From NCBI GenBank assembly GCA_963817955.1, contig CAWFQK010000004.1, forward strand, positions 544,001-608,000: 64,000 bases of DNA, given 5' to 3'. Shown here one piece after another: positions 18,756 to 48,257 of this stretch. The notes under the pieces are model-generated. The model was given only the letters and a program-made list of their open reading frames with translations, made no database searches and was not told the DNA's origin. The translations under genes and the position numbers were made by a program. This DNA comes from an uncultured Gemmatimonadaceae bacterium. GTDB taxonomy: Bacteria; Gemmatimonadota; Gemmatimonadetes; Gemmatimonadales; Gemmatimonadaceae. Every line of letters starts with the position of its first letter. Position 1 is the stretch's first letter.

Positions 18756-19219
18756 TATTTCTCGGACTTTGGGCTGGTGGAACTCGACGTCGTGGATGTG
18801 CCGCCCGACTTGCGGTCCGTCGCCTTCGCTTCAGCCGGCTTCGAGTCCCCGGCCTTACTCTCGCGTTTCGAGTCGCCCGACTTCGCATCACTCGGCTTCG
18901 TTTCACTCGATTTCGACTCACCAGCCTTCGAGTCGCCCGACTTCGATTCAGTCGACTTCGAATCACCGGAATTCGCCGCCGCCGCGGCCGACTCACCCTT
19001 ATTCGGCGGCGCGTCGCCGGATGTTCGGTGCGCATTCTTGCCGTAGTCGGTCAGATAGAAGCCTGAGCCCTTGAACAGCAAGCCAGCGCCGGCGGACAGC
19101 TGTCGTTCAGCGATCTTCCCGCATATCGGGCACGTCACGTCTGTGACGGCGTCGCTCATCTTGCGATAGAAGCGCTCGAACTCGTGACCGTCGGGACAGC
19201 GATACTCGTAAGTCGGCAT
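18755..19219 (-). CDS. FmdB-family zinc-ribbon protein with S/K/E/D-rich repetitive tail
   Basis: MPTYEYRCPDGH...CPICG...FKGSGFYLTDY. Confidence 0.9.
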   Translation of the reverse strand: MPTYEYRCPDGHEFERFYRKMSDAVTDVTCPICGKIAERQLSAGAGLLFKGSGFYLTDYGKNAHRTSGDAPPNKGESAAAAANSGDSKSTESKSGDSKAGESKSSETKPSDAKSGDSKRESKAGDSKPAEAKATDRKSGGTSTTSSSTSPKSEK

Positions 19220-34400: not shown

Positions 34401-34694
34401 CGCGGGTGCTGTGATCAGTGGTGAGTGGTCAGTGGTGAGTGGTGAGTGGTGAGTGGTGAGTGGTCAGTGGTCAGTTGTCAGTATACGGGTCATGTGCACC
34501 AGGGCGCCTGGATTGCAGGTCACTATCGCCGGTCGGCGAGGTTCGGGTGTCCAGTTGTGAGTCGTGAGTTGTGAGTTTTTAAAAACGCGCAACGCATCAC
34601 TCATCACTGGCAACTCGAAACTCGCCGACCGGTGGGCCGACCGCTACGGAGCAGCCAGCGACATCCAGCCAGAATTGGGCCCGGAGTCCAATCC
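34401..34694. repeat. Intergenic modular repeat, copy 1 (heptamer tract + module A + module B, forming a 104-bp imperfect hairpin)
   Basis: 34401-34601 matches 43365-43523, and 34601-34694 matches 43236-43328. Inverted arms span 34529-34632 around TTTTTAAAAA. Confidence 0.9.
34417..34482. repeat. Heptamer tandem (AGTGGTS) x9
   Basis: Nine consecutive 7-mers AGTGGTG/AGTGGTC/AGTTGTC. Confidence 0.95.
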
Positions 34695-34745
34695 ACGCTG
34701 CGCCAACCGGTGCGAGAAGGCGCGCATGCTCGACAACCCGAAGCC

Positions 34746-34773
34746 GTGTCCCGTGTCCCGTGTCCCCCGTCCC
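34746..34773 (-). repeat. (GGGACAC)n heptamer tract immediately after the asnS stop
   Basis: Minus strand: TAA GGGACGG GGGACAC GGGACAC GGGACAC. Confidence 0.85.
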
Positions 34774-41380: not shown

Positions 41381-43177
41381 TCATCTCATTCCCCGCCGCC
41401 GCCGCAGCAGCCACTCGGCGCACAACAGCATGATGGCGAGCGCATAGGCCCATCCGGCCTGCCGCAACCGCGGTGCCGCATCCGCCGCCACATTGCCGCG
41501 CACGGTAACGCTCGTCAGCCTCGGCGCGCGCGGCAGCCACTCCCGCGAGGCATTCACCGCGAGCACCGCACTCCCACCCCGTGTCACGACGTCGTAGATA
41601 CCCGGTAGCAGCGGCGGAGTCTCGATTACACTGGTGCCGCTGGGGAACCGCAGTGTCAGCGAATCTACGCGTGCACCACCGCGTTGCCGCACGCTCAGGC
41701 CGACCACGGAGTCGGCGGCCGAGCCGCGACGCCATCGCACGGGCTCGCCGGCGCGTACCAGGCGCTCGTCCGGAACTGCCGCGCGCCGATCGGCGTGCTC
41801 GGCGGCCAGCCAGTCAAATATACTACCCCATAGCGCCGTGAACGCGTCAGACGACGAGCCCCCGCGAAAGCGCCAGCGCCACAAACCGGACGCAGCAACG
41901 ATCGCGACGCGGCGCGGCTCGTCCATTCCAACGATGAGCGGTTTCCGCTCCTCGCCCCGACCACGCCGCGCCTCCAATCCAACCCAGGTGCCCGCCGGGA
42001 CCTGCGTGGCGATACCCACCGGCGGCAGACTGTCCCATGAGATGCCCGACAGCGCGGGCGCAAGGGGAGATGCCGGTGCCGACGATGGATACCACTCTCC
42101 GTCAGTTCCCGATGTGACGATCAGCGCCAACGGCCCGAGCGTGACCGAGCGCGGCGCGCCGAACGCCGCCGTATCGCCGTGGATGATCGCAACCGGCGCG
42201 TCGCGCAGCGCCTGCCGCACCTCGATCTCGCTGACGGGTGTCAGCGCACCCTCCACCCGCCACGCACCCGGCGCGACGCGAAAAAAACCTCGCGTGGGAA
42301 TGCCGAGTGCACCGCGCAACACCGTCAGCGCGTACCGTGCATCGAAGTCCGGCGACGTCGACACGAATACGGCGCTCGCGGCGCGCGACAGGCCGATGGC
42401 CGTCACGAGCGTGTCGTTGCGCGGCTCGGCATCGCCGGGCGACGAGACGACGGCACGCAACACGGCCGGTCCCGCGGCGCCCTCGAGACGCATCTTCACC
42501 GGGACGATCCGCTCACCGAACGCCGGCAACGAGTTGACGGTCGTTCTGGCGACCAGTTTGTTCTCCAGCGTGATCGATAGCGTTCCACCGCGCGCGCCGC
42601 CTCGCCCGGCGGTGAGGCCGACACGCGCTTCGACCGTGTCGCCGCTCACGACCGCGCGCGGCATCTCGATCGATTCCACGGCGAGATCAGGGCGCGCCAG
42701 GTGTGGCAGAACGATTATGCGCGAGCCGCCCGGCAAACTCCGCGCGGCATCGGGGTCGTCGAGCTCACCATCGGTGACCACGGTGAGCGGATGCCCAGCG
42801 CCGAGCGCGCGCTCGACAGCAGGTCGCAGCAGCGAAGCGAGGTCGCGCGGTGCCGACATCGCACCTGCACGCCGGACAGAGTCGCCGAAGACGAACACAG
42901 ACTCCGCATGGAGCCGCGCGATCGTGTCGCGCGCCGCACGCCAGAGCGCGCTATCGCCGCGCGCCATGCTGAGCGATGCATCGAGCGCAGCCCAGCGCCC
43001 CACCGGCCGTGCCGGGGCCGCCGGCGCATCGAGCAGCAGCGCTACAAGGAGGGTGACCGCCCCCACACGTAACGCGGCGGCAACCACGACGCCCCACCCG
43101 GAGCGCAGATCGCGCCATCCATACTGGATGAGCGCGAGCACGACTCCGGAAATGATTGCGACGAGCCAGGGCGACAT
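41381..43177 (-). CDS. Hypothetical membrane-anchored protein (vWA-like and Ig-like segments)
   Basis: Two N-terminal TMs, LDASLSM and VVTDG (MIDAS-like), EPRND, GLWRW, C-terminal TM ending AEWLLRRRRG. Confidence 0.7.
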   Translation of the reverse strand: MSPWLVAIISGVVLALIQYGWRDLRSGWGVVVAAALRVGAVTLLVALLLDAPAAPARPVGRWAALDASLSMARGDSALWRAARDTIARLHAESVFVFGDSVRRAGAMSAPRDLASLLRPAVERALGAGHPLTVVTDGELDDPDAARSLPGGSRIIVLPHLARPDLAVESIEMPRAVVSGDTVEARVGLTAGRGGARGGTLSITLENKLVARTTVNSLPAFGERIVPVKMRLEGAAGPAVLRAVVSSPGDAEPRNDTLVTAIGLSRAASAVFVSTSPDFDARYALTVLRGALGIPTRGFFRVAPGAWRVEGALTPVSEIEVRQALRDAPVAIIHGDTAAFGAPRSVTLGPLALIVTSGTDGEWYPSSAPASPLAPALSGISWDSLPPVGIATQVPAGTWVGLEARRGRGEERKPLIVGMDEPRRVAIVAASGLWRWRFRGGSSSDAFTALWGSIFDWLAAEHADRRAAVPDERLVRAGEPVRWRRGSAADSVVGLSVRQRGGARVDSLTLRFPSGTSVIETPPLLPGIYDVVTRGGSAVLAVNASREWLPRAPRLTSVTVRGNVAADAAPRLRQAGWAYALAIMLLCAEWLLRRRRGMR

Positions 43178-43216
43178 GCGCGAAAGCTAGTTACTCTTGC
43201 GGGACACGGGACACGA

Positions 43217-43523
43217 GAAACTCACAACGCACATCTCATCACTGGCAACTCGAAACTCGCCGACCGGTGGGCCGACCGGTACGGAGCAGCCAGCGACATC
43301 CAGCCGGCCAATACCTGGAGTCCAATCCGATCTCCCAGGTCCTTCGCTCAGGAGGACAGGCCGTCGCGGGTACAGTGATCAGTTGTAAGTGGTCAGTGGT
43401 GAGTATACGGGTCATGCGCACCAGGGCGCCTGGCTCGCAGGCCACTATCGCCGGTCGGCGAGGTTCGGGTGTCCAGTTGTGAGTCGTGAGTTGTGAATTT
43501 CTAATAACGCACCACGCATCACT
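43217..43523. repeat. Intergenic modular repeat, copy 2 (B then A; about 51-bp terminal inverted repeats, MITE-like)
   Basis: 43217-43267 is the imperfect reverse complement of 43451-43501. Modules are shared with 34401-34694. Confidence 0.85.
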
Positions 43524-43540
43524 ATGAAGGGTAGGAACGA

Positions 43541-43566
43541 GAACGGTCGCCCGAGGGCGGCCGTTC
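43541..43566 (-). terminator. GC-rich hairpin, possible terminator of the decayed minus-strand gene
   Basis: GAACGGTCGCC-CGAG-GGCGGCCGTTC, followed on the minus strand by a pyrimidine-rich (not poly-U) tail. Confidence 0.45.
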
Positions 43567-43569
43567 GCG

Positions 43570-44113
43570 CATATTGCGGAGTGTGAACTACCGGTGCGGC
43601 GTGTGACACCGCCGGCACCTGCGGTGCGGAAGGGGGTGATGCTGCAGGCGGTGTTGCGGGCGCCGCCGTACTGCCTTGCGGAGTGCCTTTGCGTGGCGCC
43701 CTGCATGATGGCGTCCGCTTGTACCGCGCTCGCGCGAGCGCCGATCTTGACGCCCGGCTTATGAGCGACGCGCTTCGCGGCAGTCCAGGTCGCCTGCAGG
43801 CTGGCATCGCCGGATCAACGGCAGCAGCAAGTCGTTGAGCACCGTGATGATGGTGCGACCACGCCACTGCTCGGCTGCCAGGGATGCCGTCGCCCCGCTT
43901 CGGACCACGGTTTGCCCCGATCGCCCATCTATGGCGGCCTGAAGCGCCTGCGGGGACGCCTGCAACCGCGCGATGAAGTCCGCCGGGAGCCCGTTGGCCG
44001 TGAACACCGCCGCGTGGCTCGCCGCGGCCTCGCCCATCGCCGCCGCCGCCGCGAGCAGTCGCGTCGTCGATGCGGCGGAGCGCTTCCAGCATACTGCCTT
44101 CGTTGTATTTCAT
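43570..44113 (-). pseudogene. Decayed gene for an Ala-rich helical protein (GLPADF motif)
   Basis: SD GGAAGG + ATG 44113 MKYNEGSMLEALRRI / TTRLLAAAAAMGEAAASHAAVFTANGLPADFIARLQ...VLNDLLLPLI / GDASLQATWTAAKRV... / Pro-Ala tail. Needs about three frame changes; the 3' end is uncertain. Confidence 0.6.
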
Positions 44114-44201
44114 GTGGCCTTCCGGCCAACGGGGGCGCCGCAATGGACCTGCACCGCGATGGGCGCTCGACGCGCCGGGGTCGAAATACGGGAGCAACCG
44201 C

Positions 44202-45295
44202 CTCGAGCGGTTGCGGTGTGGTCTTGGGGAGTTGCGCTGTGGTGAGGAGTTGCGCTGTGGTCTTGAGGAGTTGCGATATCGTCTCGGAGAATTGGGGTGT
44301 CGTCTCAGAGAGTTGGGGTGCCGCCTCAGCGAGGTGAGGTGTCGTCTCGGAGAGTTGGGGGCGCGCCTCAGCGAGGTGGCGTGGCAGCTCGAGGCGTTGG
44401 GATCCCGTCTCAAGGCGTTGGGGTGCCCGCTCGACGAGTTACGACCCTAGCTCGACGAGTTGGAGTGCTCTCTCGCCGCACTCCGATTGCGTCTCGGCGA
44501 GTTCGGATTCCAGCTCGACGCGCCGGGGTGCCGTCTCGCCGCGCTCCGATTGTGTCTCGACGAGTTGGAGTGCCGTCTCGCCGCGCTCCGATTGTGTCTC
44601 GACGCGTTGGGATCTCAGCTCGATGCGCTCCGATTGTGTCTCGGCGAGTTGGGGTGCCGTCTCTGCACGCAAGAGAGCCGTCTCGCGGCGATGCGATGCA
44701 ATCTCGACGCGATCGCATCCCTCCTCGGCAAGTTGCAATGCCTGCTCGGCACGCGAGGATCCTGGCTCACCGCGTTGGGATCCTTGCTCGCCGCGTTACG
44801 ATTCCGTCTCGACGCGCAACGATCCCGGCTTGATCCGTTGCGATTCCGTCTCGACGCGCAACGATCCTTGCTTGATCTGTTGGGATTCCGTCTGGGCAGG
44901 CGACGATCCCTGCTTGGCGCGTTGCGATCCTATCTTGGCGCGCGACGATCCCTGCTTGACGCGTTGCGATGCCATCTCGGCGCGTTCGCATTCCATCTCG
45001 GCGCGTTCGCATTCCATCTCGGCGCGTTCGCATTCCATCTCGGCGCGTTCGCATTCCATCTCGGCGCGATCGCATTCCATCTCGCCACGATCGACTTCGA
45101 TCTCGCCACGATCGATCCCGCCTCGCCACGATCGATCCCGCCTCGCCACGATCGCATTCCCTCTCGCCGCGATCACATTCGATCTTGGCGCGATCGCATT
45201 CCATCTCGCCACATTCGCATTCCATCTTGGCGCGATCGATCCCGTCTCGCCACGATCGCATTCCCTCTCCACACGATCGATTCCGTCTCGCCACC
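44202..45295. repeat. Degenerate 21-bp tandem array, 52 units
   Basis: Units start CTC/CTT/CTG every 21 bp. Four identical copies of CTCGGCGCGTTCGCATTCCAT lie at 44976-45059. One 18-bp and four 20-bp units. Confidence 0.95.
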
Positions 45296-45357
45296 CGCGC
45301 ATCGTGCGATGAGTGCGGTCCTATATATTAGTTCCGAAATTGGGGGGTCAGCGCAAG

Positions 45358-45378
45358 GGTCAATATAACCGATTGACC
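45358..45378. promoter_or_regulatory. Perfect 7-7-7 palindrome GGTCAAT-N7-ATTGACC in an AT-rich patch (candidate operator)
   Basis: Directly visible in the sequence; function is inferred. Confidence 0.45.
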
Positions 45379-45441
45379 AAAACCGACATGTTTTGAGCGT
45401 TTCAGCGTTAGTACTCGTAAAGAGGTACGTCAGTCCCGTGT

Positions 45442-45706
45442 CTTTTTCACCGCTGAGTTCGCAGAGAATCGCGGAGGCGCAGAGAACTGCAAGAGAACTG
45501 CAAGAGAACTGCAGAGGGAAGCGCGTAGAGGTGGAACGCGAGAGGCGATTCACCATTCGGATGATCCCATCTCTTGGCCCCATCACGCAGATGACCCCAG
45601 CTCTCAGCTGCGCGACTCCGAGCGTCACGACGGTGTCAGCCAAGACGCTCGGATGAGATTTTCTCGGTGTTCCTCCGCAGTTCTCTGCGCCCTCTGCGGT
45701 AAAAAG
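45442..45706. mobile_element. 265-bp inverted-repeat-bounded non-autonomous element (MITE-like)
   Basis: Left arm ctttttcaccgctgagttcgcagagaatcgcggagg versus reverse complement of right arm ctttttaccgcagagggcgcagagaactgcggagg. Internal (AGAGAACTGCA)x3 at 45481-45513. Confidence 0.6.
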
Positions 45707-45723
45707 CTGTTCTACCGGTCACA

Positions 45724-45770
45724 GAGATCCTTCGCTTCGCTCAGGATGACAGGACTTCGCTCAGGATGAC
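45724..45770. repeat. REP-like repeat doublet CTTCGCTCAGGATGAC x2
   Basis: Copies at 45735-45750 and 45755-45770, plus a degenerate copy at 43338-43360. Confidence 0.75.
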
Positions 45771-45783
45771 GGGCATGGGGCAT

Positions 45784-45807
45784 CCCGTGTCCCGTGTCCC
45801 GTGTCCC
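45784..45807 (-). repeat. (GGGACAC)n heptamer tract immediately after the M23 peptidase stop
   Basis: Minus strand: TGA GGGACAC GGGACAC GGGACAC GGG. Confidence 0.9.
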
Positions 45808-47073
45808 TCAGTGCAGCGCGAGCTTCACGACGCCGGTGACGGGTGCGTCGAGCGTTGCCAGCAGACGGTTGCGCAACTCAGCGAAGGCGCCGCGTTCGGA
45901 GGCCGGCAGCGGCTCACCGCCCGTCGCCTTCAATGCCGTGCGCGGATCCCGCTGCTCGCCGTTCACGATCACCTCGAAGTGCAGATGCGGACCCGTGCTC
46001 AACCCGGTACTGCCGACGTATGCCACCGTCTGGCCGATCGTCACATGCGTGCCAACGCGAATGCCCGAGGCGTACCGGCTCAAGTGCCCGTAGCGGGTCA
46101 CGAAGCCGTTCCGATGCCTGATCTCGAGCACGTTGCCATATCCGTTGCCCCAATTCGCGCGAACGATCACGCCGTCACCGATCGCGCGCACCGCGGTGCC
46201 CATCGCGGCCGCGTAGTCGGTGCCCTTGTGCATACGCCAGCCGCCGAGGATGGGGTGCTCGCGTCCACCAAACACACTCGAGATGCGGCGGAATTCGAGC
46301 GGCGCGCGCAGGAAGGCGGCGCGCATCGATTTGCCGTTCTGATCAAAGTACTGGCCGCTCACGGCTTGGCTGGCATAGCGCACCGCGCCGATGATACTTC
46401 CAGACAACTTGAATGTCGCGGCGATGACCTTGCCGATCCGCACCGCGCCCGTGGGCGCAATCGATCGCTCGGCAATGACCTTGAATTGATCGCCGGCCTG
46501 GAGGTCGCGGCTCATGTCCACGCGATACTCGTAGACGTCGGCCAGCGACCATGCAAGTTGCTGGCGCGCTCCCATCGGGAGATCGCTCTTCGCGCTCGCA
46601 TCCATGGCGTCATACAGGTTGGACCCGATCGTGCCGCCGACGACGATGGTGTCTGTCGTCCACGGCAGATGCTCCTCCGTGCCCTGCCAGGTATCGCCCG
46701 TTCGATGCAAGTGCAGCAACCGATCGATCGATAGTTGGAGCGTCACGTCCGATGGTATCGAGTCGGCGGCTTCGGACTTGACCGTCACCGGCATGCCAGC
46801 CGGAATCCGGCGCTCATCCAGCGAGGTCGCGGCTTGCAGTGCGCGCGCCGCAGCTCCGTCAGTGAGGCCGTCTCGGCGCAGGAGCGCCTGGAGGGATTCA
46901 CCGCTGCCGAGCGTATCGAAGCGGAGCTTCGATTGCGGGGCACCCTCTGGTGTGATGAGCACGTCCGCTGCCTTCGCGCCCGGATCGGGAAGCTGGGGCG
47001 TGAAGCGAAGCGCGCCGGCGAGCGCCAGCACGACAAGGCCGTACAATACGATGCGTACGGCGCCCAGCTTCAA
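45808..47073 (-). CDS. M23 family peptidoglycan endopeptidase (MepM-like)
   Basis: [16 protein letters not shown] (HxxxD), [15 protein letters not shown] (HxH). N-terminal TM. Confidence 0.93.
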
Positions 47074-48257
47074 TCCATTTGCCTCCGAATAAAGGTCGGG
47101 ATCTCCATGTCGCTGAGGTCCTGCGAACCCTTCTCGGTGGACGGACGTGGCGCGCGTGGCGATTCGCCGGTGCGGATACCGTTAGCAGTGACGCGGGCCG
47201 GACGATTGGCAGGGAACGGAATGACCGGCGAGCCTTTGTTGGGTTGGACGGAGGACGCGGACGCCTGTTGTACCGGCGCGATCGGCGCAACGTTGAGCGC
47301 ACGATCGAACCCGGTCGCAATGACGGTCACGCGAATCTCGCCCTGCATCGCCGGCTCGTGCACGGCACCAAAGATGATCTCGGCGTCGTCTCCAACCGCG
47401 TCGTGAATGATCTCATTGATCTGATGCACTTCACCGAGCGTGAGGTCGGCACCGCCGGTGATGTTCACCAGCACGCCACTCGCGCCCGATATACTGACGT
47501 TATCGAGCAGTGGCGACGCAATGGCCTGCTGCGCCGCTTCCAGGGCGCGATTCTCACCGCGTCCGATTCCCGTGCCCATCAGCGCCGATCCGCCAGCCTG
47601 CATCACGGTGCGCACGTCAGCGAAGTCCACGTTGACGAGCCCCGTGACGCTGATCAGCGACGAGATGCCCTGCGTAGCGTGCAACAGCACTTCGTCGGCC
47701 TTCTTGAGCGCATCCTGAAACGGAATGCCTTTGCCGACGACGGCAAGCAGGCGCTCGTTCGGAACGACGATCATGGTGTCGACGTTCTTGCGCATGGCAG
47801 CGATGCCCTCCTCTGCCTGTCGCATGCGCTTGCGTCCCTCGAAGAGGAACGGCTTCGTCACGATGCCTACCGTGAGCGAGCCAGCCTCCCTCGCGAGCTC
47901 AGCGACGACGGGAGCGGCGCCGGTGCCCGTGCCGCCGCCCATGCCGCACGTGATGAACACGAGGTCGGCGTTCGCGAGCGCGCTACCGACTTCGTCGCGG
48001 TTCTCTTCGATGGCTTGACGGCCGATCTCAGGCCTCGCTCCCGCACCAAGACCGCGTGTGAGCTTCTTGCCTATTTGCACCTTGAGATCGGACTTCGACG
48101 TCAACAACGCTTGCGCGTCGGTGTTGATCGAAATGAACTCCACTCCCTCGAGGTGCTCGTCGATCATGCGGTTGACGGCGTTTCCGCCGCCCCCACCGAT
48201 GCCCACGACTTTCATGCGGGCGTTTTGGGTCGCGCTCTCTTCGAACTCGAAGATCAT
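47070..48257 (-). CDS. ftsZ: Cell division protein FtsZ
   Basis: [27 protein letters not shown]-terminal [11 protein letters not shown]. Start ATG 48257. Confidence 0.98.

Follow-up and report, generated by a model that had tools for sequence, protein, structure and literature searches.

A 21-bp-period tandem array directly upstream of an orphan basic helical-protein gene in Gemmatimonadales: a possible helically phased cis-element

The window, the whole stretch of 64,000 nucleotides from an uncultured Gemmatimonadaceae bacterium analysed here, carries at 44202-45295 a tandem array of about 52 units with a period of 21 bp, to which no strand is assigned and supported by register analysis, TRF and comparison with colinear paralogues. 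The array belongs to a chromosomal module lying between ftsY and ftsZ, the FtsZ of the window being 75-90% identical to Gemmatimonadaceae-labelled records. Comparison of the copies shows that the module, read on the minus strand, is ordered as distal motif, 21-bp-period array, structured leader, gene for a basic helical protein and hairpin. The conserved distal end (45296-45440, minus strand) contains a 26-nt core motif at 45320-45345 with an AT-rich stretch at its end; this core has 19 matches in the genome, each marking the far end of an array, and on the distal side the homology of the copies stops near 45440. Between the array and the start codon lies the leader (44114-44201, minus strand), with a GGAAGG ribosome-binding site and a hairpin-plus-pseudoknot that is, as judged by eye, degenerate relative to that of the intact copy C4:245083. 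Intact copies have a gene of approximately 240-276 codons in the minus-strand sense directly after the array with a conserved start, while the gene in the window (43588-44113, minus strand) is broken, retaining its first 16 codons, from the ATG at 44113, and having lost codons 17-100 or thereabouts (some 85 codons), with a resulting frameshift, in addition to a second gap of 2 nt opposite nt 574-575 of the intact copy. A terminator-like hairpin lacking a clear T run follows 3′ of the gene (43541-43566, minus strand), which was recognised by eye, is kept in other copies and is absent from the consensus scan.

The module is flanked on both sides by dispersed, short, MITE-like repeats lying outside it and assigned to neither strand, at 43200-43523 and at 45444-45810, the latter with 11-bp and 7-bp tandem repeats (an example being 45481-45513), and both kinds are present in very many copies on all nine contigs. 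Tandem runs of 7 bp resembling those of the dispersed repeats (AGTGGTG in 8-10 copies, and others) occur elsewhere in the window at 34411-34482, 34553-34577 and 34744-34773, and a 15/30-bp tandem repeat of 7.3 or 3.6 copies with about 70% matches lies at 18867-18975. Two long open frames beside the module, 41381-43177 on the minus strand and 45766-46734 on the plus strand, match no Pfam family, the former having a codon-position GC pattern like that of a real gene.

The regularity of the array described in the initial annotation was borne out when the units were cut from 44262, with 40 successive units of exactly 21 bp each extending to 45101 and, as had been stated, the register being lost from 45102 onward, where units of 19-20 bp occur. 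Over these 40 units C at column 1 and T at column 2 are invariant (100% each), with G at column 9 in 95%, T at column 16 in 93% and T at column 11 in 82%, in keeping with the earlier description of T as nearly fixed at position 2 and usual at position 11. Within this strict register the consensus does drift along the array, such that the first five and last five units are only 50% alike. The higher-order structure reported previously was recovered by TRF as 42-bp blocks at 44514-44663 and 44779-44984 and is also seen in the similarity between units two apart (0.71) vs. that between neighbours (0.64), and the four recent copies, identical in sequence, occupy 44976-45059. Autocorrelation, which had been proposed as a check, gave a lag-21 identity of 0.622 over 44202-45295, the other lags between 15 and 27 reaching 0.22-0.38 and the best lag in 200 mononucleotide shuffles of the array being at most 0.330. 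The 40 units abut head-to-tail without spacers, and the array was thus rightly distinguished from CRISPR. Read support had also been called for, and short contigs from soil metagenomes are identical to pieces of the array (X1 to 44460-44562; X2 to 44556-44865 and to 45006-45056) in a comparison of four runs, with parts of the array stretch lacking contig cover; as these contigs all derive from one study, perhaps of the source sample itself, they do not constitute independent support.

Two readings of the array had been offered at the outset, a phased element loaded by protein and a decaying or nascent coiled-coil gene, the latter read either in a plus frame of Leu-x-x-Leu heptads or in the mirror minus frame rich in Glu and Gln. 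The first of these has gained ground, in that the array appears non-coding, holds a fixed upstream place and keeps its period, while the second has lost it on codon positions, stops and the lack of a homologue. The stops noted earlier are all present, a TAG at 44448 in the plus frame and TTA, which is TAA on the minus strand, at 44439 and 44796 in the mirror frame, and with one stop in the one and two in the other the statement that neither frame is cleanly coding stands. Where the family gene is intact, the array next to it has stops in every one of the six frames (for example 3, 3, 5, 6, 6, 4 and 2, 3, 3, 5, 3, 10), and the arrays of other loci read differently from that of the window. When substitutions were counted by codon position of the Leu frame, with the Glu/Gln frame as its mirror, differences in 15 paralogue pairs were distributed about equally, the middle position being highest or tied in 14 pairs and the third position of the Leu frame highest in only one, so that the per-frame selection check suggested by the initial annotation returned no third-position excess in either frame. 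Among the paralogous arrays there is no conserved start codon for the Leu frame, and one contains a 1-nt shift.

What speaks for a coiled-coil gene is that the Leu-heptad frame is free of stops for 380 codons in one paralogue and open to codons 350 and 336 in two others, with the 380-codon frame giving weak compositional coiled-coil matches in Pfam, of which DUF7310 scores highest (43.3 bits; cut-off 40), and no individual stretch passes. Against this, Cys, Gly or Pro occurs in most heptads of that frame, and the intact ortholog that would have marked the array as an ordinary pseudogene did not appear, there being no homologue (209-665 aa) at E ≤ 1e-5 among the 8000 candidates scored. On these comparisons protein coding by the array is very unlikely, and a coiled-coil gene, whether in decay or newly arising, would be a most improbable origin for it. 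For annotation this means that such tracts should not be called coiled-coil ORFs even where one frame is open.

The array is one of many in the genome. Eight places match most of its 1,094 bases colinearly at 70-100% identity, and six paralogous arrays align colinearly with gaps that are multiples of 21 except for one of 18 and a few of 1-4 nt, the alignment showing that arrays gain and lose whole units. Those of the window subfamily are both colinear and mosaic, being near-identical on the gene-proximal side and different at the far end. Homology among close copies extends from 43523 to approximately 45440 in window coordinates, such that the copied unit is larger than the array. The same gene break is found in the window copy and in the copies at C2:122533-124244 and C5:100285-102138, and three copies with one common break indicate that inactivation of the gene preceded the copying of the module. 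The window copy is, on the aligned copies, a pseudogene copy that was duplicated after breaking, with turnover of the array occurring later.

A search for further period-21 tracts and their neighbouring genes, as recommended in the initial annotation, found many. A scan of lag-21 identity revealed about 44 tracts in the genome (merged from 65 overlapping stretches); of these, 19 immediately precede, on the 5′ side, a member of one orphan gene family or a fragment of such a gene, one is 3′ of a family gene and 24 have no family match within 700 bp. Ten genes scanned beside these orphan tracts belong to unrelated families, mostly housekeeping, and several tracts without a family gene still have the distal motif. 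Intergenic tracts without a family gene include C1:191775-192227, C5:176842-177171 and C2:413034-413502, the first two having similar units and lying beside an HDOD-domain gene and an acyl-CoA dehydrogenase gene, respectively. At C2:888443-889462 an open frame, possibly a fusion or an overlapping call, includes codons 1-107 of the family gene as an N-terminal fragment, and the database cluster to which this frame belongs has HsdM and RhuM Pfam domains.

The family protein is all-helical and approximately 240 aa in length, with a pI of 10.0-11.3 and a net charge of +5.9 to +10.9 in nine of nine members. An AlphaFold2 model made with nine paralogues is an all-helical bundle (mean pLDDT 80.2) comprising two helices, each about 55 residues long, and a disordered tail. 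Searches of Pfam, PHROGs, NCBIfam and PADLOC gave nothing above cut-offs, a profile search of the PDB nothing below E 0.84, Foldseek with the predicted fold no match at E ≤ 0.001 and the ESM Atlas unnamed clusters only, while the best Z of the VIA fold search, 9.5, does not exceed the noise given for helical bundles. The Pfam, PDB profile and fold searches recognised no DNA-binding fold or family, and among 72,556 records of plasmids and 50,697 of phages tblastn found no match to the protein. When 1.84 billion representatives were searched with a profile, 4,426 proteins (clusters at 50% identity) were found at E ≤ 0.001. The best 150 of the 4,426 are mostly of 230-260 aa, a few having N-terminal extensions of about 100-190 aa, and since most of those listed start at profile position 1 and at residue 1, the array is not part of the protein.

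A multicopy family with an array 5′ of each gene might suggest that the arrays are a substrate for recombination, supplying homology for gene conversion among family copies, and the colinear, mosaic arrays of the window subfamily speak in favour of such exchange. The weak matches in the VIA search include three-helix bundles of trypanosome surface proteins, at a Z of about 9 that lies within noise for helical bundles. Pairing would not be possible between the arrays of different subfamilies, which have no common sequence; neither an expression site nor a block of 3′ homology was seen and the family protein has, by eye, no signal peptide, such that recombination is an improbable role for the arrays.

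Members of the family were found in 19 of 31 genomes of the genus and in 45 of 201 genomes sampled across the order; in a sample of the phylum, two families carried them (in 6 of 69 genomes of the one and 48 of 125 of the other) and ten other families did not (0 of 106 genomes). The layout of the module recurs in the window's genome and in two families of the order. At the level of DNA, a search for the module in 40 relatives gave short GC-rich matches of a chance-like kind only, and a search for related loci with alignment A2 found no relative. The listings and abstract openings covered by a literature search contain nothing on such arrays.

The period was examined in the 1,000 bases upstream of 71 family genes, taking lags of 8-45 and the best identity in any 252-base window. 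The best lag was 21 or 42 at 60 of the 71 loci, comprising 12/13 in the window's own genome, 12/16 in the same genus, 6/7 in other genera of the family and 30/35 in the sister family. Identity at that lag was at least 0.45 in 48 of the 71 upstream regions, as against 0/71 gene bodies and 12/400 random 1-kb genome stretches. Four loci have a best period of 20, 22 or 43; at locus L068 (G089 C1) the best upstream period, approximately 430-680 nt before the gene, is 43 bp at an identity of 0.86. A period-21 TRF consensus was obtained in 30 of 40 arrays with all consensus units different, no 6-mer occurs in more than 3 of 38 arrays (equal to reversed-sequence controls), and a motif common to the arrays was rejected on both counts. 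The family proteins have diverged to about 25-30% identity among loci where the period holds. Taken across these loci, the comparison shows the 21-bp period being kept while the sequence of the unit changes freely. Other candidates for a shared signal were discarded, purine skew and 10.5-bp AT phasing because they are inconsistent among arrays (AT phasing being strong in 6 of 10 arrays and weak in the window's type), and a helical phasing between distal motif and ATG because the distances vary modulo 21 and 10.5 (4-15 modulo 21).

The retention of the period can be viewed in another way, with the array as a functionless satellite riding with a duplicating gene module. As turnover proceeds in whole units, the 21-bp period would simply be inherited and could persist without selection. 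The even spread of substitutions over codon positions, the continued copying of broken modules (three of them with the same gene break), the 24 of 44 tracts without a family gene nearby and the loci at periods of 20, 22 and 43 would all suit a satellite. It is less easily reconciled with a period held at 60 of 71 loci across proteins so far diverged, when all similarity between units has been lost, or with the constant place of the array directly upstream of the promoter or leader, and on balance a satellite without function is regarded as rather unlikely.

In the sister family the nature of that promoter can be proposed. Taking a sigma-54-type motif as GG-N10-GC plus at least five of seven further consensus positions on the sense strand, at 26 of 34 loci (9/14 and 17/20) a TGGCAC-N5-xTGCx motif was found between 95 and 179 nt upstream of the ATG, antisense controls giving 6 matches in 44 regions and 5 in 20, and the arrays lie upstream of it. 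The near-constant distance of the motif from the start at these loci (L066-L077 and L082-L101) suggests a regulon for an uncharacterised protein family. In the window's genome rpoN is represented by one Sigma54_DBD match, and there are 18 Sigma54_activat matches (14 at E < 1e-40); in two sister-family genomes no activator gene was seen within about 50 kb of family loci, the coordinates being read by eye. No sigma-54 motif was found near the start at any of 12 own-genome loci, and none scoring at least 5 in four further loci of the window's family, so in these the array could be transcribed from the distal motif.

In the window's family the leaders have a hairpin 40-100 nt before the ATG, then a U-rich run and, shortly after it, a segment that is complementary to the hairpin loop and would form a pseudoknot with it. 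Such leaders are seen at L037, L039, L022, L025, L026, L057, L059, L051, L023 and L029, and they match no Rfam family. In ten leaders 97.1% of 68 cells pair and two of the seven pairs change on both sides, as against 26-59% in slid controls, the pairing counts being inflated because the structure was derived from the same related sequences. The compensatory changes are A-U to G-C in three sequences and G-C to C-G in three.

These leaders and the distal motif bear on the possibility that the array is a transcribed leader or repeat RNA, with transcription starting at the distal motif and running through the array to the gene. An RNA-binding protein, perhaps the family protein, would then occupy the 21-nt units in many copies, or the units would govern read-through at the hairpin that precedes the gene. 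Conservation of the distal motif exceeds that of the array, and the motif includes an AT-rich, -10-like stretch with CTGACC 18 nt upstream (both by eye); the family protein is strongly basic, and with a hairpin and pseudoknot 40-100 nt before the ATG a proximal promoter would have little space. In the sister family, though, the sigma-54-type motif downstream of the array would place the array outside the mRNA. A sigma-70 consensus scan of 43400-45600 predicted no promoter, together with two terminator-like sites, no more than in shuffles. Neither the array nor any of 10 related loci gave an Rfam 15 match at E ≤ 1, there being one chance-level mgtE row at 47759, and a common RNA fold of the array was rejected for lack of a consistent excess over shuffles, with only 3 of 22 arrays folding better than shuffles at z ≤ -3 when read in the sense direction and none in the antisense direction. 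A repeat RNA is thus judged a fairly doubtful explanation.

The reading preferred here, if tentatively and with slightly less than even confidence, is that the array is a helically phased upstream cis-element, a platform for a protein oligomer that acts at the level of DNA. It draws on the position of the sister-family arrays upstream of a promoter, on the two-turn period kept without sequence conservation and on the basic protein encoded next door. The array would act as DNA and not as protein, and as 21 bp corresponds to two helical turns every unit would present the same face of the helix. A protein oligomer may assemble on this phased loading platform to control the adjacent promoter, the candidates being an activator or silencer acting in trans and the highly basic product of the adjacent gene. 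As the units of different arrays have no common motif, a single trans-acting, sequence-specific binder is unlikely. Counting against a phased platform are the absence of a sigma-54 motif at own-genome loci, the weak AT phasing of the window type, the 24 of 44 tracts with no family gene, the inconstant distance from distal motif to ATG and the few loci with periods of 20, 22 and 43.

In a more specific form of the phased platform, itself a speculative and rather improbable one, each paralogue would polymerise on its own 21-bp-phased array with one protomer per two turns, giving a self-addressed filament that switches its own promoter. If true, this would be a new class of bacterial cis-encoded enhancer or silencer array, with conservation limited to the helical period and a recognition code that co-evolves separately at each locus. 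More generally, if the arrays are functional, the property conserved would be geometry, at two turns per unit, and not sequence; cis-elements defined by geometry alone are hard for motif searches to find and have rarely been documented in bacteria. The arrays also mark a large unannotated family, the 4,426 clusters described above, with a fixed regulatory architecture, and a putative sigma-54 promoter in one lineage with a covarying 5′ pseudoknot in another make of the Gemmatimonadales a testable system.

Arrays of short direct or dyad repeats are known from several settings against which this one can be set. CRISPR likewise comprises a short-period array in a bacterial intergenic region, but here the units abut and drift, without spacers. 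In trypanosomes, VSG genes have upstream 70-bp repeats of one sequence genome-wide that serve recombination; the members of the multicopy family described here are each similarly preceded by a non-coding tandem array, although in a bacterium and with units unrelated between subfamilies. Sigma-54 enhancers consist of 2-5 dyad sites of one conserved sequence, with helical phasing being important for loops. The sister-family array resembles these in lying upstream of a -24/-12 promoter, in genomes with rpoN and about 15 activator genes, yet it differs in having tens of direct repeats whose sequence changes from locus to locus, with no motif common to the arrays such as conserved dyad sites for one activator would give, no sigma-54 motif in the own-genome copies and no activator adjoining the loci in two genomes.

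In parC-ParR of plasmid R1, the heptad arrays of the omega repressor of pSM19035 and plasmid iterons, repeats lie beside the gene for the protein that binds them, with arrays of some 7-12 units at a spacing of integral helical turns that differ between related systems. The Gemmatimonadales arrays are likewise head-to-tail repeats with integral-turn spacing directly upstream of a small-protein gene, in this case for a protein of pI 10.0-11.3. In contrast to those systems, they have 15-50 units and occupy some 20 loci on the chromosome of each genome, a gene for a partner NTPase was not seen and the plasmid and phage records gave no member of the family, while the array-adjacent protein is predicted to be a long helical bundle, unlike the ribbon-helix-helix binders. 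With these differences in the number of units, in units specific to each locus, in multicopy spread and in the lack of a recognised DNA-binding fold, parC, omega and iteron arrays together with sigma-54 enhancers offer the closest logic to that proposed for the 21-bp arrays.
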